Assembly (NCBI RefSeq): GCF_030070105.2
Contig: NZ_CP194951.1
Location: forward strand, 1,038,453-1,070,452
DNA length: 32,000 nucleotides
From: Bermanella sp. WJH001
GTDB taxonomy: Bacteria; Pseudomonadota; Gammaproteobacteria; Pseudomonadales; Oceanobacteraceae
Direction: 5' to 3'
The notes below the pieces were generated by a model that worked only from the letters and a program-made list of their open reading frames with translations, did not search any database and was not told the origin of the DNA. Numbering within the stretch: position 1 is the stretch's first letter; every line of letters begins with the position of its first letter. The position numbers and the translations under genes are program-made. Positions 14,421 through 29,332 of this stretch are shown here, one piece after another.

Positions 14421-15771
14421 ATCCTTAAATTGGCTAAAACAAACAGGTGAGTATCAATGTCAGCCAGTGGTATCGGGGCAATTAACCAGAATGGTTGGCC
14501 TGACAATGGAAGCGGTTGGCTGCAAAGTAAAAGTAGGGGATCGTTGCTGGGTCGAACAAGGGCGAGAAAATATCGAAGCAGAAGTGGTGGGGTTTGACCG
14601 CGAAAAATTCTTTTTAATGCCAATCGAACCGGTGCAAGGTTTATCACCCGGAGCAAAAGTCACCCCGATTCTTGATGGCGATCAAATTCCCGCAGGGTTT
14701 GGTTTATTAGGACGCGTTTTAAATGGCGCAGGAAGGCCGCTTGATGGTCTTGGTGATATTGTCAGTAATGAATACATCAGCCTTGAAGGCAAAATCATCA
14801 ACCCTATGCAGCGTGCCCCCATACGCGAAACCATGGATGTGGGAATACGGGCCATCAATGCACTTTTAACCGTGGGGCGTGGTCAACGCATGGGATTATT
14901 TGCAGGCTCTGGTGTGGGTAAAAGTATGTTACTGGGTATGATGACCCGCTTTACCACCGCCGACATTGTAGTCGTGGGTTTGGTGGGGGAGCGTGGCCGA
15001 GAAGTACAAGAATTCATTCAAGATATACATGGTGAAGAAGGCTTAAAGCGCGCAGTGGTTGTAGCCAGCCCTGCTGATGACTCCCCTATCATGCGTATGC
15101 GTGCCGCCTCATTAAGCACCGCGATAGCGGAATATTTTCGTGATGAAGGCAAAGATGTTTTATTGTTAATGGACAGTTTAACTCGTTATGGCCAAGCACA
15201 ACGGGAAGTGGCATTAGCGGTGGGTGAACCCCCAGCCACAAAAGGGTATCCACCTTCTGTATTTGCTAAAATTCCTAAATTAGTTGAGCGAACTGGCAAT
15301 GGGCCACCAGGTGGTGGCTCAATTACCGCATTTTATACGGTGCTCACAGAAGGCGATGACCTGCAAGACCCCATTGCCGATTCGGCGCGGGCGATACTAG
15401 ATGGTCACGTGGTATTAAGTCGCCGTTTAGCAGAAGAAGGCCAATACCCAGCCATTGATGTGGAGGCATCCATTAGCCGAGCCATGCCACAAATTGTAGA
15501 TGCTGTGACCTTGAAATCAGCTCAGCGATTTAAGTACCTCTATAGCTTGTATCAACAAAACAAAGATTTAATCAGCGTGGGTGCCTATAACCCAGGAAGC
15601 AACCCAGAGCTAGATCTAGCTGTGCGATTGAATCCCGTGATGAAAGCCTATTTGGCCCAAGACTTAAATCAATCACTGAGCCTTAAAGAGAGTATGGAAG
15701 GCTTAACCATGATATTAAACGAAGCATTAGGACGGCGAGCTGAACCACAAGGAGCACCTGAAGCGCAATGA
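14410..15771 (+). CDS. fliI: Flagellum-specific ATPase FliI
   Basis: Walker A 'GSGVGKS', Walker B 'VLLLMDSLTR' and F1-ATPase-like sequence throughout. The ORF opens at 14383. The ATGs at 14401, 14404 and 14410 follow AAGGA at 14396-14400, so the exact start is uncertain. It overlaps the fliH 3' end. Confidence 0.93.
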
Positions 15772-16217
15772 GTCGTGAACGTGCCAAACGATTAAAACCC
15801 CTTGTTCAGATTGCACAAAATGCCGTGAATGAAGCCCTTTCATACATTGGTGCACTGCAACAAAAGCTGCGCAGTGAAGAAGAGAAAAGTCAGACCCTAT
15901 TAGGGTATCAGCAAGACTACCGAGTCAATTTTCAAAACCAAGCCAGCATCAAGGTATCCGGATTACAGATTCAACAATTTGAATCATTTATGCACCAAAT
16001 AGACGATGCCATTGCCCAGCAAAACAACCACATCTTCCAAGTAAAAGAACAACTCAAAAAAGCACAGGGCATTTATCAAACCCTCAACCAAAAATTAAAG
16101 AGTTATGAAAAGTTAGAAACTCGACTTAATGATCAGGCAATAGCGTCAGAAAACCAACAGATGCAGAAATTTTTAGATGAAATTGGTGCACAACTTCATC
16201 GTCTTCATAGCTCATAA
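15768..16217 (+). CDS. fliJ: Flagellar export chaperone FliJ
   Basis: 149-aa coiled-coil protein with an ATGA overlap to the fliI stop, and synteny. Confidence 0.85.
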   Translation: MSRERAKRLKPLVQIAQNAVNEALSYIGALQQKLRSEEEKSQTLLGYQQDYRVNFQNQASIKVSGLQIQQFESFMHQIDDAIAQQNNHIFQVKEQLKKAQGIYQTLNQKLKSYEKLETRLNDQAIASENQQMQKFLDEIGAQLHRLHSS

Positions 16218-16307
16218 TTATTAACAAAAAAAACTTTCTGCCGCCCCCAACATTCCATGTATTACCGTCTAACATTATCAATAAATGAGCTAAAGGCTGT
16301 ACACATC

Positions 16308-16589
16308 ATGGAAATGGATAAGATTGACTTGGGTACGCGCTGTACCATAGTCAAAGCAGAGGAACTGCACGGGCAAATGGAAGGCTTGATTCAATCTGGC
16401 AATGACATCGAAATACAATCTGCTGGTATCGAGCAAATTGACACATCTGCTTTACAACTTCTTCTTAGTTTTCATCAAGCATTGGCTAAAGATAACCGAA
16501 AATTATCTTGGCCAAATCCATCAGAGCAAACAGTTGCCACAGCTAAGCTATTGGGTGTTGATGAATATATTGGATTAAGTGGACACTAA
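16308..16589 (+). CDS. Small STAS-domain protein (anti-sigma-antagonist fold), first gene of the chemosensory insert
   Basis: 'IEQIDTSALQLLLSFHQAL' matches the STAS 'D-S/T-S-x-L' helix motif. The ORF opens at 16257, and the ATG at 16308 gives a ~93-aa protein typical of single-domain STAS proteins. Confidence 0.7.
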   Translation: MEMDKIDLGTRCTIVKAEELHGQMEGLIQSGNDIEIQSAGIEQIDTSALQLLLSFHQALAKDNRKLSWPNPSEQTVATAKLLGVDEYIGLSGH

Positions 16590-16605
16590 TTCGGGAGAGC
16601 AATTT

Positions 16606-16968
16606 ATGGCAAAAATATTAGCAGTAGATGATTCAGCTTCCATGCGACAAATGGTGAGTTTTACCCTAAAAGGTGCTGGCCATGATGTGATTGAAGCCAG
16701 TGATGGTGTAGAGGCATTAAACTTTGCAAAAGGGCAAGGTGTCGACCTTGTGCTAAGTGATGTCAATATGCCAAACATGAATGGTATTGAGTTATGCCGT
16801 AATTTACGCGAATTACCAAGCTATAAATTCACGCCAATCTTAATGTTAACCACCGAGTCAGCTGGCGATAAAAAAATGGAAGGTAAAAGCGCAGGAGCGA
16901 CAGGTTGGATCGTTAAACCGTTTAATCCTGATCAGTTGCTTACGACCATCAAGAAAGTATTGGGATAA
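16606..16968 (+). CDS. cheY: CheY-like single-domain response regulator
   Basis: 'KILAVDDSASMR', 'LVLSDVNMPNMNG', 'MLTTES' and 'GWIVKPF' are the CheY signature residues. GGGAGAG lies upstream of the ATG at 16606; the ORF track's GTG at 16579 is unlikely. Confidence 0.9.
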   Translation: MAKILAVDDSASMRQMVSFTLKGAGHDVIEASDGVEALNFAKGQGVDLVLSDVNMPNMNGIELCRNLRELPSYKFTPILMLTTESAGDKKMEGKSAGATGWIVKPFNPDQLLTTIKKVLG

Positions 16969-16971
16969 ATC

Positions 16972-19113
16972 ATGAGTATTGATCTTAGTCAGTTCCACCA
17001 AGTATTTTACGAAGAGAGTTATGAAGGCCTTGATGCAATGGAGCAAGGCTTACTTGACTTAGACTTGGTAGAACCGGACGCTGAAGTCATCAATACTATT
17101 TTTCGTGCAGCGCATTCAATGAAAGGCGGTGCAGGCACCTTTGGTTTTACCCAGGTGGCTGATTTTACTCATGTGCTAGAAACGCTACTTGACCAAATAC
17201 GCAGCGGTCAACGGGCCATGAGCCAAGACATTCAAAACTTGTTACTCAAAAGTGTCGATTGCATAAGAGGTTTATTACAAGACCTACAAGCGAGTAATGA
17301 TCCTGATCTTGAAGAAAGCAAGGTCCTAAAGGCGCAATTTGAAGCCATATTAAATGGCGAGGCCCCATCAGTTGTCGAGCCTCCACAGCCCCCATCCGAT
17401 ATCCCAAAAGCTGAAAAAAATAGTGAAGCTGGCGGCTGGCATATTCGATTTATACCTGAACTGTCTATCTTACAAACCGGTAACGAACCCACACGAATGT
17501 TCCGTCAACTTGCAGACCTATGTGATAGCAATATGCAAGTGATTGCCGGTACCGAACGGGTGCCTGAATTTACCAGTTTGGACCCTGAACTGTGTTATTT
17601 AACATGGGATATTCGAATTGAAAAATCCATTTCAAAAGCAGACATAGAAGAAGTTTTTGAATGGGTAGCAGATGATGCCGAAATCATTATTACGCCGTTA
17701 TCAGGCAGTGTTAATGAATCAACCGACACAACAGCAGAAAAACAAACGGCAGAGCCCGACGTTACAGAAGTAGGCATGACAGAACCAGAAGTGGCTGAAT
17801 TGGCACCTGTTACACCACAAACCACAGCGTCATCTAAAACAGAAGCAGCTGTTTCAAAAACGGTAGAGAATCCAGCAAAACCTCAAGCTAAGGCCGCACC
17901 TAAGACGCAAGAGAGTTCATCTATCCGCGTGAGTATCGATAAGGTAGATAGCTTAATTAATATGGTGGGGGAATTAGTCATAACCCAATCTATGTTAGGA
18001 CAGCTTGGGCAAAACTTTGATATTACTCGTGTTCAGCGCTTACAAGAGGGCTTGGCACAACTTGAACATAACACTCGTGAGTTACAAGAAAGTGTTATGA
18101 AAATTCGTATGATGCCAATTAGTTTTGTCTTCAGTCGTTTTCCTCGTTTAGTTCGTGATGTGAGTATCTCTTTAGATAAAAAAATAGAACTGCTTATGTC
18201 TGGTGAAAATACCGAGCTTGATAAGACCGTAATGGAGAAAATTGGTGACCCAATGGTTCACTTGATTCGTAATTCCATTGACCATGGTATCGAAATGCCC
18301 GCAGATAGAATAGCGGCAGGTAAGCCAGAAACAGGCACCGTAAAATTAGATGCTTATCATCAAAGTGGCAATATTGTCATTGAAATTAAAGACGACGGTG
18401 CGGGCCTCAATACAGATCGAATTTTAACAAAAGCCATGGAAAAAGGTTTGGTTGCCGAAGGTGCAAATTTAAGTCAAGAACAGATATTCGACCTAATTTT
18501 TCAACCTGGTTTTTCAACGGCGGATGTTGTCAGTGATTTATCGGGCCGTGGCGTAGGCATGGATGTGGTGCGCAGAAACATTGCAGCTTTAAATGGCTCA
18601 ATTGAAGTGTCATCGGAGCGTGGGCGCGGTTCTCGCTTTGTCATAAGGCTGCCTCTGACCTTGGCAATTCTAGATGGACAACTGGTCAAAGTTGGAGAAG
18701 AAATTTATATCTTCCCACTGGTGAGCATTGTGGAATCGATCCAGTTAGATGATCGCGCAATCAATCATGTTGGTGGGCACAGCGATGTTCTGCAACTGCG
18801 CGATGAGTATGTGCCGATTGTTGAGCTTGACGAAGTATTTAATATTGATAAAGAAAAACGATCCATCGAAGAAAGCATTATTGTGGTGGTTGAAACAGAT
18901 GGTGAAAAAATCGGCGTTGTGGTGGATGAGTTGTTAGGGCAACAGCAAGTGGTTATCAAAAGCTTAGAAGAAAACTACAAGCGAGTAGATGGTATTTCAG
19001 GTGCGACCATACTAGGTGATGGAACAGTCGCATTAATTGTCGATGTGAGCAGCTTGTCAAAAATGAGCGGTGCATCATCTAGAATAATTGACGGTGGCCA
19101 TAAAGCCGCATAA
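16972..19113 (+). CDS. cheA: Chemotaxis histidine kinase CheA
   Basis: P1 Hpt 'AAHSMKGGAGTFG', P3 'IRVSIDKVDSLINMVGELVI', P4 N-box 'HLIRNSIDHGIE', G1 'DDGAGL', G2 'GRGVGMD', and a C-terminal CheW-like P5. Confidence 0.95.
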   Translation: MSIDLSQFHQVFYEESYEGLDAMEQGLLDLDLVEPDAEVINTIFRAAHSMKGGAGTFGFTQVADFTHVLETLLDQIRSGQRAMSQDIQNLLLKSVDCIRGLLQDLQASNDPDLEESKVLKAQFEAILNGEAPSVVEPPQPPSDIPKAEKNSEAGGWHIRFIPELSILQTGNEPTRMFRQLADLCDSNMQVIAGTERVPEFTSLDPELCYLTWDIRIEKSISKADIEEVFEWVADDAEIIITPLSGSVNESTDTTAEKQTAEPDVTEVGMTEPEVAELAPVTPQTTASSKTEAAVSKTVENPAKPQAKAAPKTQESSSIRVSIDKVDSLINMVGELVITQSMLGQLGQNFDITRVQRLQEGLAQLEHNTRELQESVMKIRMMPISFVFSRFPRLVRDVSISLDKKIELLMSGENTELDKTVMEKIGDPMVHLIRNSIDHGIEMPADRIAAGKPETGTVKLDAYHQSGNIVIEIKDDGAGLNTDRILTKAMEKGLVAEGANLSQEQIFDLIFQPGFSTADVVSDLSGRGVGMDVVRRNIAALNGSIEVSSERGRGSRFVIRLPLTLAILDGQLVKVGEEIYIFPLVSIVESIQLDDRAINHVGGHSDVLQLRDEYVPIVELDEVFNIDKEKRSIEESIIVVVETDGEKIGVVVDELLGQQQVVIKSLEENYKRVDGISGATILGDGTVALIVDVSSLSKMSGASSRIIDGGHKAA

Positions 19114-19619
19114 TGGAAGCCGATGCTATGACTGCAGTTAGTGAAATGGAAGAAAGTCAAAAAATTGGATCGGAAGACGGTGTTTTAACCGAGCAGTATC
19201 TGACTTTTATAATGGCTGATGAAGAATATGGTGTTGATATTCTTGCCGTTCAAGAAATTAGGGGTTGGGAGTCTGCGACCCCAGTACCTAACAGTCCAAA
19301 TTATTTAAAGGGGGTCATAAATTTACGCGGCACAATTGTCCCGATTATGGATTTACGCTTACGATTTGATCTTCCTAAGATTGAATACGGAGAAGAAACC
19401 GTTGTCGTTGTTTTAAAGATATTCACATCAACCGGAACTCGGACAATGGGAATAATTGTTGATGCCATAAGTGATGTCTATGACGTACCCATTGGTGAAG
19501 CAAAAAACAAAGGACTTGGTGATAACCAGAATTCAAATTTTATAAAAGGATTGGTAACCGTGAAAAAAAACATGGTGATTCTATTAGAACTTGAAAATCT
19601 TTTAACGATTGATGATTAG
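19113..19619 (+). CDS. cheW: Coupling protein CheW
   Basis: 'YLTFIMADEEYGVDILAVQEIR' and 'GVINLRGTIVPIMDLR' are the CheW signature. It overlaps the cheA stop by 1 nt. Confidence 0.92.
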   Translation: MEADAMTAVSEMEESQKIGSEDGVLTEQYLTFIMADEEYGVDILAVQEIRGWESATPVPNSPNYLKGVINLRGTIVPIMDLRLRFDLPKIEYGEETVVVVLKIFTSTGTRTMGIIVDAISDVYDVPIGEAKNKGLGDNQNSNFIKGLVTVKKNMVILLELENLLTIDD

Positions 19620-19631
19620 GTGGAAATAAAA

Positions 19632-22600
19632 ATGGATAGTTTGAGCCGGATGAGCATACAGTATAAATTTATCATGCCTTGGGTGTTGCCACTGATAGGG
19701 CTGGTATATGCCTTTATATCAATACCCCAAGAGCAAGCAGGGAATGCTCTCATTATACTGAGTTTATTATGTGCGGCTGGGCTCATTGCTCATTGGATGC
19801 AAGCCCATAAACTATTGACGGTTTTATTACTGGCAACCCGTAGCGCAAATGCCACCGCAAACGGTGATTATGGTTATGAACCCACAACCAAAGGTAAGGA
19901 TGAATTAGCCAAGCTTATTTATACCATGGTGAATTTACGTAATAGTGTTAAGTCTATTGCATCCAGTAGTGCTGATCTTGATAGTTCTAACTTGAAAGAA
20001 GACACAGAGAAAGTTGCGGCCATCGATAAGGTTCAAGCAATAATTGAATTCAATATGGATGGAACCATAATTACCGCAAACAAAAATTTCTTAGGAGCCG
20101 TCGGTTATTCATTAGAAGAGATACAGGGTAAGCACCATAGTATTTTTGTAGACTCAGAATTTAAAGCTAGCAATGAATATCAAGATTTCTGGAGAAAGCT
20201 CAATAATGGTGAGTTTGAATCTGCAGAATATAAGCGTGTAGGGAAAGGCGGAAAAGAAATTTGGATTCAAGCATCTTATAACCCAATTATTGGGAAAGAT
20301 GGTAAACCTTATAAAGTCATTAAATTTGCAACGGATATTACGCAGCAAAAAATTGATAATATATCTAATACTCGTATCAGAAGAGCTTTAGATTCATGCG
20401 CCGAGTCATGTTTAATGGTTGCGGATGAAAATTACGATCTTGTATATACCAATAAAGGTGTACAAGACATGTTTATCACGGCAGAGTCGGATATTAAGAA
20501 AAGTATTCCAAGCTTCTCTGTGGATAATGTTCTTGGTAAAAATATTGATATTTTCCACAAAGATCCAAGTTATCAGCGTTCAATGCTAGATAAATTATCA
20601 GACACATACAAAACCAAACTTGAGTTAGGAGATCGTACATTCTCATTGATCGTGAACCCAATATTAAGTGAAGAGGGTGCTCGCATTGGAACGGTAGTAG
20701 AGTGGACCGATAAAACAGAAGAAATTGCTCGTACCGAAAAAGAAGAAAAAATATCTGCCGAAAATGCTCGTACTCGCAGCGCGTTAGATGTGTGTCAGGC
20801 TAATGTGATGATGGCTGATGAAAACTTAAATATTGTTTATTTAAATAATTCGGTACGTGAAATGCTCACCGAGGCTCAGCCTGATATTAAGAAAGACTTA
20901 CCAAGCTTTGACGTCAGTAAATTAATGGGCTTTAACGTGGATGGTTTCCATAAAAACCCGGCTCATCAGCGTGGCATGCTAGCGGATTTAAAAGATGTTT
21001 ATAACACTAAAATTGTGGTGGGCGGTCGCACCTTTGATTTAGTGGCCACACCTGTTTGGCAAGATCAAAAACGTCTGGGCACGGTTGTTGAGTGGAAAGA
21101 CTTGACCGATCAACTTGCATTTGAAGCAGAACAAAAGCGTATTTCTGATGAAAATACACGTGTACGTTTAGCGCTTGATGCTTGTTCAGCGAATACGATG
21201 ATTGCCGATAATGATCAAAATGTGATTTACACCAATGAAGCGGTTTCAGGCATGTTGCGCATTGCTGAATCGGATGTACGCAAAGACCTACCTAACTTTA
21301 CCGCAAGTAAAGTATTGGGTAGTAATATTGATATTTTCCATAAAAATCCGGCACATCAACGTCAAATGTTATCAGCATTAAAAGATACCTATCGTACTCA
21401 GATTGTAGTGGGTGGTCGTACATTCTCCTTGATTGCCAACCCTATTATTAACCCAGAGGGTGAGCGATTAGGCACGGTTGTTGAGTGGAATGACCGTACT
21501 GAAGAAGTGGCGGTTGAACGTGAAGTGGATAACATTATTGAGTCAGCTGGTAAGGGCGAATTAAGTTTACGTGCCACGGTTGAAGATAAGAGTGGTTTCT
21601 TTAAAAATCTTTGCATGGGATTAAACAGCTTAATGACCATTTCGGAAAACGTCATTAATGATACAGCCCGTGTTTTAGATGCCATGGCACACGGTAAATT
21701 AGACGAACGCATTGAAGCAGATTATCAAGGTATTTTTGGCAAGCTTAAACAAGATGCCAATGATACGGGAGAGCGTTTAACAGATGTCATCGGTCGAATC
21801 CGCGAATCTGCAAATACCGTCAGTACCGGCTCCACTGAAATCGCACAAGGTAATACTGACTTAAGTCAACGTACCGAAGAGCAAGCCTCTAGCTTGGAAG
21901 AGACGGCATCCAGTATGGAAGAAATGACCAGCTCTGTTCGTCAAACCAGCGAAAATGCCTCTCATGCAAATAACCTAGCTGCCAATGCTCAAGAGAAAGC
22001 GCAAAAAGGTGGCGAGGTTGTGAGTAAAGCCGTTGGCGCAATGGAAGAAATTAACACCTCAAGTAAGAAAATTTCAGACATCATTGGTGTGATAGACGAA
22101 ATTGCATTCCAAACTAACCTACTCGCATTAAATGCTGCAGTAGAAGCAGCCAGAGCCGGTGAGCAAGGCAAAGGCTTTGCAGTGGTGGCAGGTGAGGTTA
22201 GAAACTTAGCACAGCGCAGTGCTGGGGCGGCAAAAGAAATTAAAGACTTAATTCGCGATAGTGTTGAAAAAGTCGATAATGGTACTGACCTTGTTAACAA
22301 ATCGGGACAAACTCTAGCAGAAATTGTAGAAGCCGTTGAAAAAGTTAACACCATGATTAAAGAAATCAGTTCAGCCTCTGAAGAGCAAGCCAGTGGTATA
22401 GAGCAAGTAAACAAAGCCATTAGCCAAATGGATGAAATGACTCAGCAAAATGCTGCTCTAGTAGAAGAAGCATCTGCGGCCAGTGAAACCATGACCGAGC
22501 AAGCCAAAAACATGCTGGATCTCGTGGGTTTCTTTAAAGTGGCTTCGGGTTCTGATACTCATAATCCTATGGGGCATCAGTCAGCTATGATGAGTCACTC

Positions 22601-22712
22601 ATCTAAGCCTTCTCAATCAAAATCAAGCGCGTCATCTACACAAATCCATAAACCGACTACGGCAAGTCGACCTGTGGTAAAAGATGACGACGACGATTGG
22701 CAAGAATTTTAG
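19632..22712 (+). CDS. Methyl-accepting chemotaxis protein: TM hairpin-HAMP-PAS-(Aer2-like PAS)x3-HAMP-MA domain-tether-DWQEF
   Basis: MCP hairpin tip '[42 protein letters not shown]'. Two hydrophobic segments lie at residues ~17-34 and 42-59 with a 7-aa loop. There are four PAS-like modules. The ORF opens at a GTG at 19620, but the ATG at 19632 follows AGGTGGA. Confidence 0.93.
20370..21512 (+). repeat. Three tandem diverged copies (~390-400 bp period) encoding paralogous PAS domains within the MCP
   Basis: Copies at ~20370-20729, 20769-21119 and 21159-21512. They share blocks R-x-R-x-ALD-x-C, 'KDLP.F', 'FHK(N/D)P..QR.ML', 'GGRTF.L' and 'GTVVEW.D.T'. Roughly half the residues are identical between copies 2 and 3, by eye. 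Confidence 0.9.
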
Positions 22713-22726
22713 AGAAGTAATGTACT

Positions 22727-23551
22727 ATGGATTTCTCGGGTAAGGAATTCCCAATGGCTGATGAGGACTTTAAACGCCTCTCAGCCAAGGCTTACGAAAT
22801 CAGTGGCATCGTATTGGGAGATCAAAAAAAAGAATTAGTTTATAGTCGTATATCCAGACGCATTAGAAAACTAGGTCTTAAAAATTTCTCTGAGTACTGC
22901 CAGCATTTAGAAGCGAATCATACTGCTGAAGTAAATGAATTTGTTAATTCAATTACAACAAACCTAACGTCATTCTTTCGTGAATCTCATCATTTTGAGT
23001 ATTTAGCAAAAGAAATCATACCGCATTGGAAAAAGCAAAATAAGTCGATCCCCATTCGTATATGGTCATCGGCTTGCTCTACCGGTCCTGAGCCATACAG
23101 TATTGCAATCACTTTGCATAAAAACATGATGGTCAAACAACATAATATTAAAATATTAGCAACCGACTTAGATAGTGATGTTTTAAAAAAAGGTCGTGAA
23201 GGCATTTACCCTCTTACCGAAATTGAGCAATTACCGAAAGACTACCTGTCTTGTTTTCAGCAGAATGCAACAACGGGTATGGGAATGGTAAAGCCTGAAA
23301 TAAAAGAAATGATTCAATTTAATCGCTTAAATTTGCTTGGCCCTTGGCCAATGAATGCAAAATTTGATGTGATATTTTGTCGTAATGTGGTGATTTATTT
23401 TAATAAAGAAACCCAAAAAGAATTATTTGAACGTTTAGCAGATCAGCTTAACGATGGTGGTTATTTATTTATAGGTCATAGTGAAACACTGCACGGTATG
23501 ACCTCTCGGTTTGAGTCTAAAGGCCGAACTATTTATAAAAAGATAAGGTGA
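22727..23551 (+). CDS. cheR: Chemotaxis protein methyltransferase CheR
   Basis: 'TNLTSFFRESHHF', 'RIWSSACSTGPEPYSIA', 'DVIFCRNVVIYF' and 'LFIGHSE' motifs. An alternative start at 22754 is preceded by TAAGGA. Confidence 0.93.
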   Translation: MDFSGKEFPMADEDFKRLSAKAYEISGIVLGDQKKELVYSRISRRIRKLGLKNFSEYCQHLEANHTAEVNEFVNSITTNLTSFFRESHHFEYLAKEIIPHWKKQNKSIPIRIWSSACSTGPEPYSIAITLHKNMMVKQHNIKILATDLDSDVLKKGREGIYPLTEIEQLPKDYLSCFQQNATTGMGMVKPEIKEMIQFNRLNLLGPWPMNAKFDVIFCRNVVIYFNKETQKELFERLADQLNDGGYLFIGHSETLHGMTSRFESKGRTIYKKIR

Positions 23552-23555
23552 TTAC

Positions 23556-24197
23556 ATGGCACATAATCCACTGAATCAGCCACCTGCTGAAAAAGGGTTT
23601 GAGCATGTTAATCGCTATTTTGATCCAAAGATAAATGTATGGTCAGCAAAAATATTGCCAGGTGAATTTTATGTTACCACTCATGGCGAAATGATTGGCA
23701 CGGTTTTGGGTTCTTGTATCAGTGCTTGTGTGCGAGATGTCACACTAGGTATAGGTGGTATGAACCATTTTATGCTGCCCATTCAAAACGAGCATAGTTC
23801 AGCGCAGTGGGGCAGCGATGCCAATACGTCTGAGACTCGTTATGGCAATTGGGCCATGGAGTATTTATTGAATACGCTTTATAAAATGGGTTGTACGAAG
23901 CGAAATCTAGAAGTGAAGTTATTTGGTGGCGGACAAGTACTTGCCAGTATGACGGATATCGGGCAAAGAAACATATTATTTGCGTACGATTTTTTACGCA
24001 AAGAAGGCATCAATGTAAAAGCTGCCGATGTAGGTGATGTTTATTCGAGAAAAATACTTTATTTTCCCGATACCGGATGTGTGAAAGTAAGGCGCATTAC
24101 AACCACGAAAAATGAAACCATTATCGAGCGCGAAAAGGGCTACCTGGATTCTATCAGGCAGCATAAAGATGACTCTGATATTGAACTATTTGATTAA
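23556..24197 (+). CDS. cheD: Chemoreceptor glutamine deamidase CheD
   Basis: 'ILPGEFYVT', 'TVLGSCISACVRD', 'GGMNHFMLP' and 'VKLFGGG' are the CheD signature. The position between cheR and cheB matches Che2/F7 clusters. Confidence 0.88.
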   Translation: MAHNPLNQPPAEKGFEHVNRYFDPKINVWSAKILPGEFYVTTHGEMIGTVLGSCISACVRDVTLGIGGMNHFMLPIQNEHSSAQWGSDANTSETRYGNWAMEYLLNTLYKMGCTKRNLEVKLFGGGQVLASMTDIGQRNILFAYDFLRKEGINVKAADVGDVYSRKILYFPDTGCVKVRRITTTKNETIIEREKGYLDSIRQHKDDSDIELFD

Positions 24198-24209
24198 CAA
24201 GGGTGGATC

Positions 24210-25268
24210 ATGATTAAAGTGCTGATCGTAGATGATTCAATCTTAATACGAAAAGTTTTAACACAGATATTATCTGATCAGGCGGATATCCAAGTAGTGG
24301 GTACGGCGGCTGATCCCTATATTGCTAGGGATAAAATTAAAGCCCTCAATCCAGATGTCATTACGCTTGATATTGAAATGCCTAAAATGGACGGTATTAC
24401 CTTTTTGCGTAACCTAATGCGCTTAAGGCCTTTGCCGGTTGTGATGATTTCCACACTCACACAAAAAGGTGCACCATCAACATTAGAAGCGTTGGAAATC
24501 GGAGCCGTAGATTATATCGGTAAACCCAGTGCCGATAAGCCTGAATTGTTAAGTGAATATGCCTCAGAAATCATAGAAAAAGTGAAAATGGCGTCGGTCG
24601 CCAACGTGAGTCGCCTAGAGGTTCAGGCCAATAGAACACCGCCAAAAGTGATTAAACCTATTGAAAAACAAGGTTTGAATCGAGACGGTTTAATTGTGAT
24701 TGGCGCTTCCACCGGAGGCACTGAAGCCATTAGGGAGCTGCTGTGCATGTTGCCAGTGGACACCCCACCAATCGTCATCACTCAACATATACCGCCGGTG
24801 TTCAGTGCATCATTTGCTAAGCGAATTAATGGCATGATTCAGCAAGAAGTCAGTGAAGCACAAGATGGCGATAAGATTATGCCAGGACATATTTATATCG
24901 CCCCTGGTGACAAGCAATTTGAAGTTGTGCAAAAAGGTGGTCACTTCTACTGTAAAGTGTATGACGGTGAACGGGTCAATTTACATAAACCGTCGGTAGA
25001 GGTTTTATTTGACTCGATTAGCCGTAACCCGCAACTGGCAAAACGCTCCATTGGCATTATGCTCACAGGAATGGGGGCAGATGGAGCACAAGCCATGCTG
25101 AGAATGAAGCAAGCGGGTTGTTATAATATTGTGCAAGATAAAGAAAGTTCAGTTGTTTGGGGAATGCCTGGTGCCGCGGTTGATTGTGGCGCGGCAGATA
25201 AGGTTTTACCACTTAATCACATTGCAGCCCATGTGGTATCACATTTAAAAAAGGGAATTAAGCGTTAA
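24210..25268 (+). CDS. cheB: Chemotaxis response regulator protein-glutamate methylesterase CheB
   Basis: REC domain ('VITLDIEMPKMDG') plus an esterase domain ('IGASTGGTEA', 'ITQHIP', 'MLTGMGADGA'). Confidence 0.95.
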   Translation: MIKVLIVDDSILIRKVLTQILSDQADIQVVGTAADPYIARDKIKALNPDVITLDIEMPKMDGITFLRNLMRLRPLPVVMISTLTQKGAPSTLEALEIGAVDYIGKPSADKPELLSEYASEIIEKVKMASVANVSRLEVQANRTPPKVIKPIEKQGLNRDGLIVIGASTGGTEAIRELLCMLPVDTPPIVITQHIPPVFSASFAKRINGMIQQEVSEAQDGDKIMPGHIYIAPGDKQFEVVQKGGHFYCKVYDGERVNLHKPSVEVLFDSISRNPQLAKRSIGIMLTGMGADGAQAMLRMKQAGCYNIVQDKESSVVWGMPGAAVDCGAADKVLPLNHIAAHVVSHLKKGIKR

Positions 25269-25346
25269 ATTTTACTAAATTATTTTTTTTGAACTATGCT
25301 CAAAATATGCAGTACAACTCTACGCCAAGGAAATAAGAGGTTTGAC

Positions 25347-25646
25347 ATGCCGGTAAATGCTTCGATTAAAGGTGATGAATTGACCGTCACCGTGGAAGGG
25401 CGCTTTGACTTTAGTGCACATCAAGAATTCCGTGATGCTTATGAAGATGCGGGGGCAGGTGTGAGTAAATACGTGATAGATATGTCTAAGGCTTCATATT
25501 TAGACAGCTCCGCACTTGGTATGCTTTTATTGCTGCGTGATCATGCCGGTGGTGAGAGCTCAAATGTGCGTATTACACGTTGCAATGCCGATGTGAAAAA
25601 AATTCTAACCATTTCGAATTTTGAGCAACTCTTTACTATCGATTAG
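25347..25646 (+). CDS. STAS-domain anti-sigma-factor antagonist (HsbA/SpoIIAA-like)
   Basis: 'ASYLDSSALGMLLLL' is the phosphorylatable DSS-x-LG motif, with serines at residues 54-55 counted from the ATG at 25347. AAGAGG precedes that ATG. The ORF opens at 25296. Confidence 0.8.
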   Translation: MPVNASIKGDELTVTVEGRFDFSAHQEFRDAYEDAGAGVSKYVIDMSKASYLDSSALGMLLLLRDHAGGESSNVRITRCNADVKKILTISNFEQLFTID

Positions 25647-25667
25647 CGGTAAGGTCTGAGGTCAGTT

Positions 25668-27383
25668 ATGGATGAAAGACCGCTACATGTATTAGTGGCA
25701 GATGATAACCAATCTGATCGAATGATACTGTGTGCCATCGTTAAAAAAATGGGCTACACCGTATGTGAAGCCGCTGATGGTAATGAAGCCATCGACCAAT
25801 TTTTAGAACAAAAACCTGACATCATCTTACTTGATGTGATTATGCCCAATTTAAATGGGCAACAAGCCGCTAAGACAATCAAGACCCTAGCGGGAGAAGA
25901 TATGGTTCCTATTATCTTCTTAACCTCTCTACAAGAAGCGTCTGACTTAGCCGCCTGCTTAGAAAGTGGTGGCGATGATTTTATTTCTAAGCCTTATAAT
26001 AAAATCATTCTGCAAGCAAAAATCAATGCTTTTAGTCGCATGCTGAAAATGCACACAACCTTGCAAACTCAGCGTGATTTAATCCGCGAAAATAATGAAC
26101 ATATGCGTCACGAGCAGCAAGTTGCAAGAGCTGTATATGATAATGTGGCACACAGTGGCTGTTTAGATCTACCCAACATTAAGCACTTGTTATCTCCTTT
26201 TTCTATTTTTAATGGTGATGTTCTTTTAGCTGCGCGCAAGCCTTCAGGCAGTATTCATATTTTATTAGGTGACTTTACCGGACACGGTCTGCCTGCTGCT
26301 ATTGGGGCGATGCCACTTGCTGAAATATTTTATGGTATGACGGCAAAAGGTTTTTTTATGTCGGATATTCTTCGAGAGATTAATATCAAATTAAAAAAAA
26401 TCTTACCAGTGGGTTACTTTTGCTGTACCTGTATGGCCAATATGAGTTTTAGACGCAACGAAATTGAAGTGTGGATGGGCGGATTACCAGATTTTGGCTT
26501 GTATCGTAAAAACACAGGTCAAGTTGAGCGAATTAAATCCAACCATTTACCTTTAGGGGTTTTGTCATCCCAAGCCTTTGATGCAGAAACCAAAACATTT
26601 GACTTCTTACCTGGTGATAAATTCTACATGTGGTCAGATGGTATCATTGAAGCCCGTAATTCTGATGGTGAACTGTTTGGCGATGAACGATTATTTTCGG
26701 TTTTTGATAATAAAAATAGCGATGACTATTTTGATAATATTCTAAAAAGTGTTAATCAATTTGTTGGTGAAAATGGCCGAGACGATGATACAACGTTATT
26801 AGAGTTGTCTATGGTTGATGAGTCTGAGATCGGTAGAGTGGATATTGATCTCTCAAGTGGTGCCATTAGTGGCCCCACAAATTGGAATATGATTTATACC
26901 CTAAGAGACGAAACCCTAAAGTCGTTTAATCCTTTGCCTATTATGCTAAACATTTTAAATGATGTGCCGGCATTACGGCGTTTAAGTGGGCAATTGTATA
27001 CCCTAATGGCCGAGTTATTTTCTAATGCGTTTGAGCATGGTGTGCTTGGATTAAGTTCGGAACTTAAAAAAACCGCCGATGGTTTTGCCGAATATTATCG
27101 TTTACGCAGTTGCGCGATGGAGTCTTTAGAGAATGCGTTTGTTAAATTTGATTTTGATCTGACCCCGACCAAAGATGGCGGTAAGCTGACCATCATTGTA
27201 GAAGATAGTGGGGAAGGTTTTGATTATGATAATGATAACTTCGACTCAAATATTGATGAAAATGTCGCATATTCTGGCCGAGGTATTCCACTGATTTATA
27301 GTTTATGCGATAGTCTCACCTATCTTGATAAGGGTAATAAAGTCAAAGTTTGCCTATCATGGAAATCCCCGATTGAGGAGTAG
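25668..27383 (+). CDS. Three-domain REC - PP2C (SpoIIE-type) phosphatase - RsbW-like HATPase serine kinase (HsbR-like partner-switch regulator)
   Basis: REC domain 'VLVADDN...IILLDVIMPNLNG...SKPY'. PP2C motifs 'GDFTGHGLPAA', 'WSDGIIEA' and 'GRDDDTTLLEL'. C-terminal kinase N-box 'ELFSNAFEHG', G1 'EDSGEGFD' and G2 'SGRGIPL'. Confidence 0.85.
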   Translation: MDERPLHVLVADDNQSDRMILCAIVKKMGYTVCEAADGNEAIDQFLEQKPDIILLDVIMPNLNGQQAAKTIKTLAGEDMVPIIFLTSLQEASDLAACLESGGDDFISKPYNKIILQAKINAFSRMLKMHTTLQTQRDLIRENNEHMRHEQQVARAVYDNVAHSGCLDLPNIKHLLSPFSIFNGDVLLAARKPSGSIHILLGDFTGHGLPAAIGAMPLAEIFYGMTAKGFFMSDILREINIKLKKILPVGYFCCTCMANMSFRRNEIEVWMGGLPDFGLYRKNTGQVERIKSNHLPLGVLSSQAFDAETKTFDFLPGDKFYMWSDGIIEARNSDGELFGDERLFSVFDNKNSDDYFDNILKSVNQFVGENGRDDDTTLLELSMVDESEIGRVDIDLSSGAISGPTNWNMIYTLRDETLKSFNPLPIMLNILNDVPALRRLSGQLYTLMAELFSNAFEHGVLGLSSELKKTADGFAEYYRLRSCAMESLENAFVKFDFDLTPTKDGGKLTIIVEDSGEGFDYDNDNFDSNIDENVAYSGRGIPLIYSLCDSLTYLDKGNKVKVCLSWKSPIEE

Positions 27384-27388
27384 GTAGT

Positions 27389-27721
27389 ATGTCCCATTTA
27401 AATATGGAGCAAATTCAAGAATTAAAAGACATTATGGAAGAAGGCTTTAATGATCTTGTCTTAACCTATTTACATGATAGCGAAGTAAAACTGACGGCAT
27501 TAAAAGCGGCCATTCAATCCTCAAAGAGTGAGCAGGTTGCTGAAATTGCTCACAGCTTAAAAGGCTCTAGTGCCAATATCTATGCTGAGTCCTTATCTGC
27601 ACTGTTCAAAAAAGTTGAGGATTCAGGTCGCTCGCAAACATTACAAGATGTACCGTATGTGTTTGAGAAAATAGAAGAAGAATTCTCACACGTTAAAACT
27701 CAACTGCAACAATTACAGTAA
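27389..27721 (+). CDS. Stand-alone histidine phosphotransfer (Hpt) protein (HptB-like)
   Basis: 'VAEIAHSLKGSSANIYAESL' is the Hpt active-site helix. It is 110 aa and starts 5 nt after the preceding gene, with GAGGAG upstream. Confidence 0.85.
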   Translation: MSHLNMEQIQELKDIMEEGFNDLVLTYLHDSEVKLTALKAAIQSSKSEQVAEIAHSLKGSSANIYAESLSALFKKVEDSGRSQTLQDVPYVFEKIEEEFSHVKTQLQQLQ

Positions 27722-27732
27722 CCTTTTAAACT

Positions 27733-27748
27733 TGGCCTAAGCATTGCA
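27733..27748 (+). promoter_or_regulatory. Sigma-54 promoter of fliK
   Basis: TGGCCTAAGCATTGCA has exact GG-N10-GC spacing and a TTGCA -12 element. It starts 11 nt after the hpt stop and ends 35 nt before the ATG at 27784. Confidence 0.75.
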
Positions 27749-27783
27749 AATTCTTTATATCAAAGAATTAATTGGGTCATGTT

Positions 27784-29187
27784 ATGCCAGTATCTCCGCT
27801 ATTTTCACTTGTGTCACCCGTCACACCAAGTAATACAAATGGGCCTTTGTCTCAATCAGGCGCGAACAATAATGGGGTTTTAAGCCCCATATCAAGCACA
27901 AATACAGACTCTTCTGACCTTTCTCAAGGTCAAACGACGTTAAGTTTTTTTGAACAACTACAAGTGGCAAATGATCTAAATAATTTGCCACTTGGGCAAG
28001 AATTTGCCGCTTATTTGCCGCACGTATCGGTCGATGAAGAAAGCCCGATGACGCAGCTGAATACTGATTTTGTAGGGCCATTAACTCCCTTAACATTAGA
28101 GCATACCCATAACACGGACGATGCCAGTGGAATTTTATACAGCCCAATAAATCAAGCCGTAACGCTGGATAGCACGCAAGTAGAAACACCTGAAGGACTA
28201 CAATATCTTGAAAGCTTGCGACGAGCGCAACCCCATATCCAGTCTCAAGGGGCATTAAGTTCTAACATGACACAAGAGGATCTGGTTGAGGGTAATTTAG
28301 ATACCCAAGCTCAAGTTAAACTCGTGCAGTCCGAACTCTCTGCAAGACAGGCACATATCCCTGAAGCGGCTGCGAAAATAGTGGACCCAAATCTTCAGGC
28401 TGTGAATCCTGCTATTGCGATGAATGCACAAAATAATAAAGCGATTAATCTCGACGAACTGTCAATGGATGTATTAACAGAAGAGATCACTTTAGATGAG
28501 GCCAGTTTAGATGGCATGCACTTAGAATCAGAATCGATACATGACCAGCCAAAAACATTAACAGCGTTAAAAGAAAACAGCATGGTGAATGTTTCGGTGA
28601 ATCAAGAAAGTAGCGCGTTACCTGACGCTAAGCTTAATGGAATGGAAACCATCACAGCAGGGTTAAAAGAATCAGCGGCTACAAAATCCATGGCCTTAGA
28701 TCAGGGCGACGGTGTTAAAACGCAAACACTAACCGCAGAAAAATTGGCCAGTCACTTTAATAAATTAGATGTGCCACCTCAAAGTCCACAATGGAATGAT
28801 CAGGTGGCAAAACGAATTAGCATCATGGCCAGTGAAAGTGTGCAAAGTGCCCGCATCCAGTTGGACCCTCCAGAATTAGGCTCTTTAGAAATTAAAGTCA
28901 AAGTGCAAAACGATCAGGTAAGTGTGGCATTTGGCAGTAATAACCAAATGGTGCGCGATGCATTAGAAAGTCAAACCCCACGCCTTCGTGAGTTGCTAGA
29001 GCAGCAGGGTGTGGATTTAGCCGATGTGAATGTCTCTGAACAAGGCCGAGATCAAAATGGTCAAGATTCAAATGAAGCACTTACACAAGGGGGTGATCAA
29101 GAGGGCGACGCAATAGGAGCTGATCCGTTGACTGACCAAGAGATCCAAACCTTTGAAAGCGATGCTTTAGTGGATTACTTCGCTTAA
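27784..29187 (+). CDS. fliK: Flagellar hook-length control protein FliK
   Basis: The C-terminal domain 'ARIQLDPPELGSLEIKVKVQNDQVSVAFGSNNQMVRDALESQTPRLRELLEQQGVDLADVNV' is the FliK signature, and the N-terminal region is Q/S/N/T-rich and looks disordered. The ORF opens at a TTG at 27772. Confidence 0.9.
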   Translation: MPVSPLFSLVSPVTPSNTNGPLSQSGANNNGVLSPISSTNTDSSDLSQGQTTLSFFEQLQVANDLNNLPLGQEFAAYLPHVSVDEESPMTQLNTDFVGPLTPLTLEHTHNTDDASGILYSPINQAVTLDSTQVETPEGLQYLESLRRAQPHIQSQGALSSNMTQEDLVEGNLDTQAQVKLVQSELSARQAHIPEAAAKIVDPNLQAVNPAIAMNAQNNKAINLDELSMDVLTEEITLDEASLDGMHLESESIHDQPKTLTALKENSMVNVSVNQESSALPDAKLNGMETITAGLKESAATKSMALDQGDGVKTQTLTAEKLASHFNKLDVPPQSPQWNDQVAKRISIMASESVQSARIQLDPPELGSLEIKVKVQNDQVSVAFGSNNQMVRDALESQTPRLRELLEQQGVDLADVNVSEQGRDQNGQDSNEALTQGGDQEGDAIGADPLTDQEIQTFESDALVDYFA

Positions 29188-29207: not shown

Positions 29208-29247
29208 CCTTGTCGTGCTTAGGCATGGCAAGGCCCTTCTTTTTTTC
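29208..29247 (+). terminator. Probable intrinsic terminator after fliK
   Basis: An ~11-bp stem (ccttgtcgtgc pairs with gcatggcaagg, with two G-U pairs) has a ttag tetraloop and is followed by cccttcttttttt. Confidence 0.5.
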
Positions 29248-29316
29248 TTGTCTACACTTAATGATGAATAGCTTATGCAATTTGGCGACATTGACCCAAA
29301 GTTTTAGTCGTGTTCG

Positions 29317-29332
29317 TGGCATAAGGCTTGCA
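29317..29332 (+). promoter_or_regulatory. Sigma-54 promoter of fliL(MNOP...)
   Basis: TGGCATAAGGCTTGCA is a near-perfect consensus. It lies 30 nt upstream of the fliL ATG, with AAGGTG between them. Confidence 0.75.

Follow-up and report, generated by a model that had tools for sequence, protein, structure and literature searches.

Why does a full set of chemosensory genes stand in the middle of a polar flagellar gene cluster, and what do its products act upon? The question is raised by a 32,000-nucleotide stretch of contig NZ_CP194951.1 from Bermanella sp. WJH001 (hereafter the window), which we analysed by means of a listing of its open reading frames (ORFs), Pfam profile searches and NCBIfam models. 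Its forward strand, on which all features given below lie unless stated otherwise, carries a Pseudomonas-like polar flagellar cluster in the order fliS, fleQ, fleS, fleR, fliE, fliF, fliG, fliH, fliI, fliJ, the block considered here, fliK, fliL, fliM, fliN and fliO. In the ORF listing, fliJ (15768–16217; Pfam FliJ, E 1.5e-19) and fliK (27772–29187; Pfam Flg_hook, E 1e-25) flank 11 co-directional ORFs with intergenic gaps of -11 to +27 nucleotides (nt), which Pfam identifies in order as STAS1, cheY, cheA, cheW, a gene for an Aer2-type receptor, cheR, cheD, cheB, a second STAS gene, a gene for a REC-PP2C-kinase protein and an Hpt gene. An earlier reading of this DNA by a model that saw only the sequence (the original prediction) had placed 11 co-directional genes with these domains between fliJ and fliK, and the ORF listing and Pfam matches agree with it exactly. 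The block is best explained as an ancestral-type “stage 1” F7 chemosensory operon that begins after fliJ and runs unbroken into hsbA-hsbR-hptB, a set of genes known from Pseudomonas.

Stage 1 was defined by Ortega et al. (2020; Nat Commun 11:2041) as the most ancient gammaproteobacterial F7 layout, with the order STAS, cheY, cheA, cheW, aer2-like, cheR, cheD, cheB, STAS and a REC-serine phosphatase; the same authors state that the function of the ancestral non-enteric F7 system “remains unclear”. Examples are Vibrio cholerae cluster III, V. vulnificus che2 and the M. alcaliphilum cluster. The Bermanella block shares with this layout a 5′ STAS gene directly before cheY-cheA (also kept in relatives and in Vibrio), an Aer2-like heme-PAS receptor of the 36-heptad (36H) class with an xWxEF tail encoded between cheW and cheR, a CheD with no accompanying CheZ, and an end formed by a second STAS protein and a REC-SpoIIE-HATPase_c_2 serine phosphatase. 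It differs in having a single cheW, as do all the Oceanospirillales loci, where Vibrio has two; in lacking an mcpA-like receptor gene after cheB, the second STAS gene following 27 nt downstream; in the predicted transmembrane hairpin and the extra non-Aer2 PAS domain of its receptor; and in its position between fliJ and fliK. Moreover, an Hpt gene follows the phosphatase gene where Vibrio aquimaris has FapA. In that species, the locus (L101) on chromosome II, a replicon filed among plasmids, reads STAS, cheY, cheA, cheW, cheW, aer2, cheR, cheD, cheB, mcpA, STAS, REC-PP2C-kinase and FapA; the REC-PP2C-kinase gene (15832–17505 of L101) and the ensuing gene for a homologue of FapA (flagellar assembly protein A) lie outside a flagellar operon. 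In short, the block equals the published ancestral cluster with hptB added and with mcpA and one cheW missing, and the combination of che2 genes with a partner switch, which the original prediction took for a new fusion, is already contained in the stage 1 definition.

The site of the block likewise has a precedent. In Pseudomonas species other than P. aeruginosa, hsbA-hsbR-hptB are found between fliJ and fliK and are co-transcribed with fliK-flhB (Leal-Morales et al.; Valentini et al. 2016). The original prediction had taken fliK directly after fliJ as the norm and counted an insert of 11 genes; the block is real, but since the hsb trio already occupies this place in Pseudomonas, the extra material amounts to eight genes, from STAS1 to cheB. 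Compared with the P. putida operon hsbA-hsbR-hptB-fliKLMNOPQR-flhB, the window has the same post-fliJ position and order of the hsb genes, the same downstream genes, sigma-54-type motifs before fliK and fliL and a sigma-S-like element just after fliJ; however, eight F7 genes separate fliJ and this element from hsbA. In P. aeruginosa, homologous Che2/Aer2 proteins (PA0173–PA0180) and HsbA, HsbR and HptB (PA3345–PA3347) are present, but the Che2 locus and the hsb genes, which have moved next to flgM, are unlinked, whereas they are contiguous in the block. For Shewanella oneidensis, published work (Bouillet et al. 2016–2019; Fortier et al. 2022) reports, by reverse-transcription PCR, a single che1 transcript for F7 Che proteins, Aer2 and CrsA/CrsR (a STAS protein and a REC-PP2C-kinase protein), and proposes that Che1 controls the CrsR/CrsA switch with RpoS as the output. 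Linkage of F7 che, aer2 and the two partner-switch genes is thus common to che1 and the block. The che1 operon has instead the stage 2 order, with mcpA-crsA-crsR ahead of cheY and neither a 5′ STAS nor an Hpt gene; no flagellar genes are listed in it, and CrsR is just 25.5% identical to HsbR.

A literature search found no paper with F7 genes between fliJ and fliK, with an Hpt gene in an F7 cluster, or with a link between HptB and Aer2/CheA2. In searchable papers, the flagellar position of a whole F7 cluster and the presence of hptB directly downstream of the stage 1 set therefore appear to be undescribed, as does the identity of the terminal STAS protein and phosphatase of a flagellar-embedded F7 cluster as HsbA/HsbR orthologues. 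The original prediction had allowed that the arrangement might already be described and functionally assigned in close relatives: it does occur in many of them, but no paper on its flagellar context or function was found. While its observation is confirmed and its family assignments are right, its claims of novelty and “fusion” are overstated. With a layout that is widespread among marine relatives of Pseudomonas, the block counts as an informative variant and not as a new system. Its interest lies in bringing together three separately studied elements, namely the F7 stage 1 cluster, the Pseudomonas HptB-HsbR-HsbA switch and the flagellar fliJ|fliK junction. As the “second STAS plus serine phosphatase” of F7 corresponds in this lineage to HsbA/HsbR, the output of F7 gains a concrete candidate that can be tested, and cultivable organisms such as Bermanella marisrubri and Thalassolituus encode both possible phosphodonors, CheA and HptB, beside the switch. 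The gain is limited in that the idea of a Che system feeding a partner switch had already been put forward for Shewanella, public genomes often contain the layout and the operation of the link is our inference.

Orthology of the last three genes and occurrence of the layout

By sequence and synteny, the last three genes of the block are true orthologues of hsbA, hsbR and hptB, which strengthens the resemblance noted in the original prediction: they are 60–61%, 48% and 34–38% identical, respectively, to their Pseudomonas counterparts, which have the same order and site. The first of them, the second STAS gene (25344–25646; Pfam STAS), has a listed ORF start at 25296 and probably a true start at 25344. 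The second (25668–27383; Pfam Response_reg, SpoIIE and HATPase_c_2) encodes a REC domain, a PP2C phosphatase and a GHKL-type Ser kinase/anti-sigma domain, and the third (27389–27721; Pfam Hpt) occupies a position equivalent to that of Pseudomonas hptB. For calibration, FliG, FliI and FliM are 63–70% identical to those of Pseudomonas. The Vibrio stage 1 locus is more distant in this part: the STAS protein and phosphatase reach only 40% and 32% identity to it and HptB has no counterpart there, as against 47–60% for CheA, CheB and CheY; over the Che proteins as a whole, identity to the Vibrio cluster is 35–60%.

Alignment further reveals conservation of the column of HsbA Ser56, the phosphorylatable serine, within LDSSA, and in HsbR of the surroundings of the REC Asp, the phosphatase GHGLPAA and DDD segments and the kinase N and G boxes. 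The only Protein Data Bank (PDB) match of the Hpt protein is 7C1I_A, a 116-residue Pseudomonas HptB (E 7e-15), and searches with the 7C1I chain A sequence retrieved Pseudomonas proteins named HptB by their sources. The Pseudomonas loci were reached by this path, from PDB 7C1I to HptB homologues and from these to the encoding contigs. Two Pseudomonadaceae loci of the non-aeruginosa type (L102 and L103) read fliE-F-G-H-I-J, STAS, REC-PP2C-kinase, Hpt, fliK-L-M-N-O-P-Q-R, flhB and flhA, which is the layout of the window minus the che genes. In a P. aeruginosa-like genome (CP083359; L104, 6331–7935), hsbR is called as four fragments, reflecting either frameshifts or sequencing errors. An exhaustive search of representatives with HsbR yielded 2160 family representatives at E <= 1e-30. 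The nearest public relative of the Bermanella protein, 94% identical, comes from a Bermanella metagenome-assembled genome (MAG), and a homologue with 65% identity bears the JGI name “HptB-dependent secretion and biofilm response regulator”.

The synteny comparison suggested by the original prediction shows that fliJ-[che2-hsb]-fliK recurs. Loci were inspected with flanks of up to 10 kb. A scan of genome contigs anchored on HsbR gave 14 loci, 11 of which reach upstream of hsbA; a che block, complete or cut by the contig end, is present in 9 of the 11, labelled Bermanella, Oceaniserpentilla, Saccharospirillaceae, Cellvibrionaceae (48% HsbR identity), Oceanicoccus or Gammaproteobacteria. Deletions have left their marks in the two remaining loci: L004 has fliJ, the upstream motif described below and a decayed STAS1 of 88 residues, then hsbA, and L011 has STAS1, cheY, a CheA stump of 246 residues and about 800 nt without a long ORF before hsbA. 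Six further look-ups (Bermanella marisrubri, Alkalimarinus alittae, Thalassolituus hydrocarboniclasticus, a Hahellaceae MAG, Litoribrevibacter albus and Oleispira, whose contig spans only the downstream part from cheR onward) returned the same layout. It is thereby found in six named Oceanospirillales genera (Bermanella, Oceaniserpentilla, Thalassolituus, Alkalimarinus, Litoribrevibacter and Oleispira) and in Hahellaceae, Saccharospirillaceae and Cellvibrionaceae MAGs. The locus L011, from a MAG labelled Crocinitomicaceae, and L003, from one labelled Oceanicoccus, are Bermanella-like, with 70–85% HsbR identity; these names misfit their loci, probably through errors of binning in the public records.

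A second survey scanned metagenomes for loci anchored on the F7 CheY, counting those that extend 3 kb or more upstream (n = 40). Genes of the set fliG/H/I/J lie directly upstream of the F7 cluster in 19 of these 40 loci. Among the variants are che genes with fliK immediately behind them (L074 and L075), cheB-STAS-fliK with hsbR and hptB missing (L028 and L037) and an F7 cluster in a non-flagellar context (L078 and L079). The results of the two surveys indicate that the layout is old, widespread and modular. The G+C content has no sharp break across the block and hence gives no sign of recent horizontal acquisition; recent transfer was rejected on this ground and because the layout is kept in hosts with HsbR identities down to 48%.

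The chemosensory proteins and their receptor

The assignment of the che genes to the F7/Aer2 type, also made in the original prediction, is supported here by proxies, on which formal membership of the class also rests. Every proxy that we ran agrees with it: the 36H receptor, its xWxEF tail and heme-type PAS domains, a CheY4-like CheY, and the presence of CheD together with the lack of CheZ. The receptor (19620–22712; Pfam HAMP, PAS and MCPsignal) consists of a predicted N-terminal transmembrane hairpin (hydrophobic 19-residue windows at 17–35 and 42–60), a HAMP domain, one generic PAS domain, three heme-type PAS domains, another HAMP domain, the signalling domain and a C-terminal DWQEF. Its kinase-control module (residues ~700–975) aligns gap-free to E. 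coli Tsr, the 36H archetype, whereas 28 extra residues, equal to four heptads, are needed over the same span for the P. putida aromatic-acid receptor (chain 6S18) and about 35 for T. maritima chain 2CH7; this pattern places the receptor in the 36H class.

The PAS domain at residues 513–629 matches the structure of a P. aeruginosa Aer2 PAS domain (3VOL; E 2e-63) and keeps both the region of the E-eta His (FHKNPAHQR) and the I-beta Trp (VEW), on the basis of which it is predicted to bind heme. With FHKxP motifs at 312, 443 and 573 and VEW at 359, 489 and 620, the receptor contains three Aer2-type PAS modules spaced by 130–131 residues and 48–58% identical to one another. At this level of protein identity, and given that Tandem Repeats Finder detected no DNA-level repeat for the three modules, their duplication is old. 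An Aer2 with three PAS-heme domains is already known from V. vulnificus, and the best NCBIfam model for the receptor is that of Vibrio Aer2, at 725 bits and under its 1200-bit cutoff. The number of modules varies among orthologues: there are three FHKxP motifs here and in Thalassolituus, and two in B. marisrubri and Litoribrevibacter, the receptor of the latter having three VEW motifs despite its two FHKxP. The DWQEF tail matches the E-W/V-E-X-F end of V. cholerae System III receptors, and orthologues end in DWQEF, EWAEF, EWDEF or EWEEF. As the Aer2 proteins of P. aeruginosa, V. cholerae and S. oneidensis have been reported without transmembrane regions, the predicted hairpin bears on how F7 arrays attach to the membrane. 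In several otherwise complete clusters, cheR follows cheW with no receptor gene in between (L016 from Alkalimarinus alittae, L018 from the Hahellaceae MAG, L028, L037, L039, L074 and L078); the Aer2-type receptor of these clusters must have been lost or have its gene elsewhere.

The F7-type cheY (16606–16968; Pfam Response_reg) has a listed ORF start at 16579 and probably a true start at 16606, giving a protein of 120 residues. Its best PDB matches are 4H60/4HNR, CheY4 of V. cholerae cluster III, at 142 bits, as against 77–84 bits for other CheY entries. No other protein of the region is as conserved: in loci L022–L100, its identity to orthologues is 75–94% where that of CheA is 50–67% and that of FliG/FliI/FliM 56–75%, which implies that this small response regulator is under unusually strong constraint. 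For the product of cheA (16972–19113; Pfam Hpt (P1), H-kinase_dim, HATPase_c and CheW) the best NCBIfam model is the E. coli-type PRK10547 (648 bits), and the best models for the single-copy cheW (19113–19619; Pfam CheW, E 2e-34) and for cheR (22727–23551; Pfam CheR_N and CheR) are likewise E. coli (F7) types. The remaining Che genes are cheD (23556–24197; Pfam CheD), whose product scores 234.8 bits with PRK13487, above the 223-bit cutoff, and cheB (24210–25268; Pfam Response_reg and CheB_methylest). Pfam detects neither cheZ nor cheV in the window, just as had been predicted, and no second gene for a methyl-accepting chemotaxis protein occurs anywhere in it.

The block opens with STAS1 (16311–16589; Pfam STAS_2, E 2e-12), which encodes an anti-sigma-antagonist-like protein. 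Although the ORF is listed from 16257, the true start is probably 16311, since the resulting length of 93 residues is found in all relatives and a conserved non-coding motif falls inside the longer ORF. A word-indexed search retrieved 26 close relatives, a small number that we attribute to fast evolution of the protein.

Candidate outputs of the F7 genes

Our preferred reading, which we put only slightly below an even chance, is that the F7 system acts on the phosphorylation of HsbA through HsbR, with HptB as a second input. It is favoured because F7 genes are linked to a STAS plus REC-PP2C-kinase pair in three gene orders (Vibrio stage 1, Shewanella che1 and the flagellar-linked form) and are contiguous with it here. 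Under this scheme, O2 or another heme ligand would bind the heme-PAS domains of a membrane-anchored 36H array and set the activity of CheA; CheA~P would charge the F7 CheY and CheB, and CheR, CheD and CheB, together with the pentapeptide tether, would provide adaptation. The pathway would not steer the motor; its target would be the phosphorylation state of HsbA, reached by CheA phosphorylating the HsbR receiver alongside HptB, or else by way of CheY~P or STAS1. HsbA would in turn swap partners, in the manner known for HsbA and CrsA, among the RpoS-sequestering kinase domain of HsbR/CrsR, diguanylate cyclases and, in P. aeruginosa only, FlgM. Transcription of the block would read into fliK, which has a sigma-54-like promoter of its own.

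Partner-switch biochemistry published for HsbR/HsbA and CrsR/CrsA supports this reading; in P. aeruginosa, HptB~P converts HsbR from a kinase into a phosphatase, and the partner of HsbA depends on its Ser56. The original prediction had a chemosensory array feeding a partner switch that gates sigma-28-dependent flagellar genes or cyclic di-GMP levels. Its general form is not new, having been proposed for the S. oneidensis route from Che1 through CrsR/CrsA to RpoS. As for its sigma-28 branch, an action through FlgM has been reported for P. aeruginosa alone and was tested and excluded in P. putida, in which the hsb genes occupy the same site as here. Outputs through RpoS or cyclic di-GMP are at least as plausible as sigma-28 gating.

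Several observations weigh against the preferred reading. In no organism has an experiment demonstrated that an F7 CheA passes its phosphoryl group to a REC-PP2C-kinase protein; phosphorylation of STAS1 is not conserved, the residue after its conserved Asp being T, A or C across orthologues; and the element upstream of STAS1 discussed below is a candidate sigma-S -10 element by resemblance only. Further such points speak at the same time for a different account, in which the two modules are independent neighbours: the che block would have its own output through CheY, while HsbA/HsbR/HptB would be driven by orphan hybrid kinases via HptB, and their adjacency would result from the tolerance of the fliJ|hsbA junction for insertions and from both being stationary-phase units. 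We consider this account, the main rival, a real, if doubtful, possibility. In the flagellar clusters of Pseudomonas, insertions are known to favour the fliJ-hsbA junction, and HptB is already a phosphodonor for HsbR, present as a dedicated one. A two-hybrid assay of V. vulnificus CheA2 against RsbU was negative (data not shown in the source). The modules are also separable, every partial combination being found in nature: hsb only in Pseudomonas, hsb kept after loss of che in L004 and L011, che only in L074 and L075, and che with just a STAS gene after cheB in L028 and L037. However, the che-STAS-phosphatase order also occurs outside a flagellar context in Vibrio, and the genes are linked in Shewanella, such that independence would call for repeated chance juxtaposition. 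Moreover, cheB and hsbA are separated by a mere 27 nt with no terminator, and hosts with HsbR identities as low as 48% still have the layout.

The flagellar location could alternatively be explained if the block were a motility chemotaxis (aerotaxis) system whose CheY binds the flagellar switch. The genes do lie between fliJ and fliK and near fliM and fliN, F7 steers the motor in enterics and probably in betaproteobacteria, and Aer2 receptors expressed in E. coli can drive chemotaxis. Nevertheless, we regard motor control as highly improbable: cheZ and cheV are absent from the window; the CheY is nearest to CheY4 of V. cholerae and not to CheY3, which binds the motor, or to the CheY of E. coli; all genomes with stage 1 or stage 2 F7 also have an F6 system, which is the motor controller where studied; and two flagellated relatives have deleted the che block with their flagellar genes intact.

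An evolutionary extension of the HsbA-directed reading is that loci of this type preserve the original wiring, that the HsbA/HsbR(/HptB) switch arose as the module through which the ancestral F7 (Aer2) system delivered its output, that the Pseudomonas hsbAR-hptB genes are the remnant left after che departed, that the output of non-enteric F7 is HsbA partner switching in general, and that CheA and HptB converge on the HsbR receiver, where O2 sensing would be combined with hybrid-kinase inputs at a point linked to the assembly of flagella. We judge this combined proposal unlikely. The deletion scars in L004 and L011 suggest that its che-departure route is being taken today.

Putative promoters and neighbouring genes

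The conserved motif mentioned above, GTCTAACATTA (16267–16277), is located 44 nt upstream of the likely STAS1 start and is a candidate sigma-S-type -10 element. Its general form is GTCTAAYCTTA, usually with TAGCA 19 nt further upstream. Of 53 loci, 17 have the relaxed motif GTCTANN[CA]TTA at a distance of 25–80 nt ahead of STAS1, where 0.05 would be expected; the loci are phylogenetically non-independent, but STAS1 identity among them drops to 27%. We liken the element to the sigma-S -10 consensus (TCTATACTTAA), with a C just upstream of the hexamer and an A downstream. Similar strings, GCTACACCTT and GCTAAATCTT, are present in Pseudomonas fliJ-hsbA spacers, and the RpoS-dependent PhsbA of P. 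putida carries such a motif at the same post-fliJ position as in the window. The motif upstream of STAS1 appears to be undescribed. Assignment of the GTCTA motif as a sigma-28, sigma-54, extracytoplasmic function (ECF)/sigma-E or FleQ box was rejected on sequence or spacing after comparison by eye with the respective consensus sequences. A sigma-70 scan gave 24 sites, fewer than the 38 in shuffled sequence, and no convincing one ahead of STAS1. In V. cholerae and P. aeruginosa, RpoS induces the F7 clusters; taken with the dependence of PhsbA on RpoS, the conserved sigma-S-like element upstream of STAS1 suggests that the block may be a stress- or stationary-phase unit nested in sigma-54 flagellar operons. 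In one metagenomic locus (L025, 8580–9000), an extra F7-like cheY, 72% identical and with its own GTCTAACCTTA motif, stands between fliJ and STAS1.

Sigma-54-like promoter motifs are seen 24 nt upstream of fliK (TGGCCTAAGCATTGCA; 27733–27748) and 31 nt upstream of fliL (TGGCATAAGGCTTGCA; 29317–29332), these being two of the three matches to TGGC-N7-TTGCW in the window, and they parallel the sigma-54 promoters PfliK and PfliL of P. putida. A terminator-like hairpin (29208–29233), with an 11-pair stem including 6 GC pairs and then a T-rich tail, follows fliK; it is the top-scoring one, and no hairpin of comparable strength was found inside the block. A second copy of the GTCTA motif, GTCTACACTTA (29250–29260), is a near-perfect sigma-S-like -10 element about 110 nt upstream of fliL and falls between this hairpin and the sigma-54-like fliL motif. 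As the copy is kept in L001–L005 and L007, fliL may have two promoters. Rfam returned zero matches in the window.

Upstream of fliS, the window encodes a 686-residue protein (76–2136) with no confident Pfam family and, on the reverse strand, a 689-residue protein with TPR and S-adenosylmethionine (SAM)-methyltransferase regions (2216–4285), both of which may be part of a flagellin-modification island.

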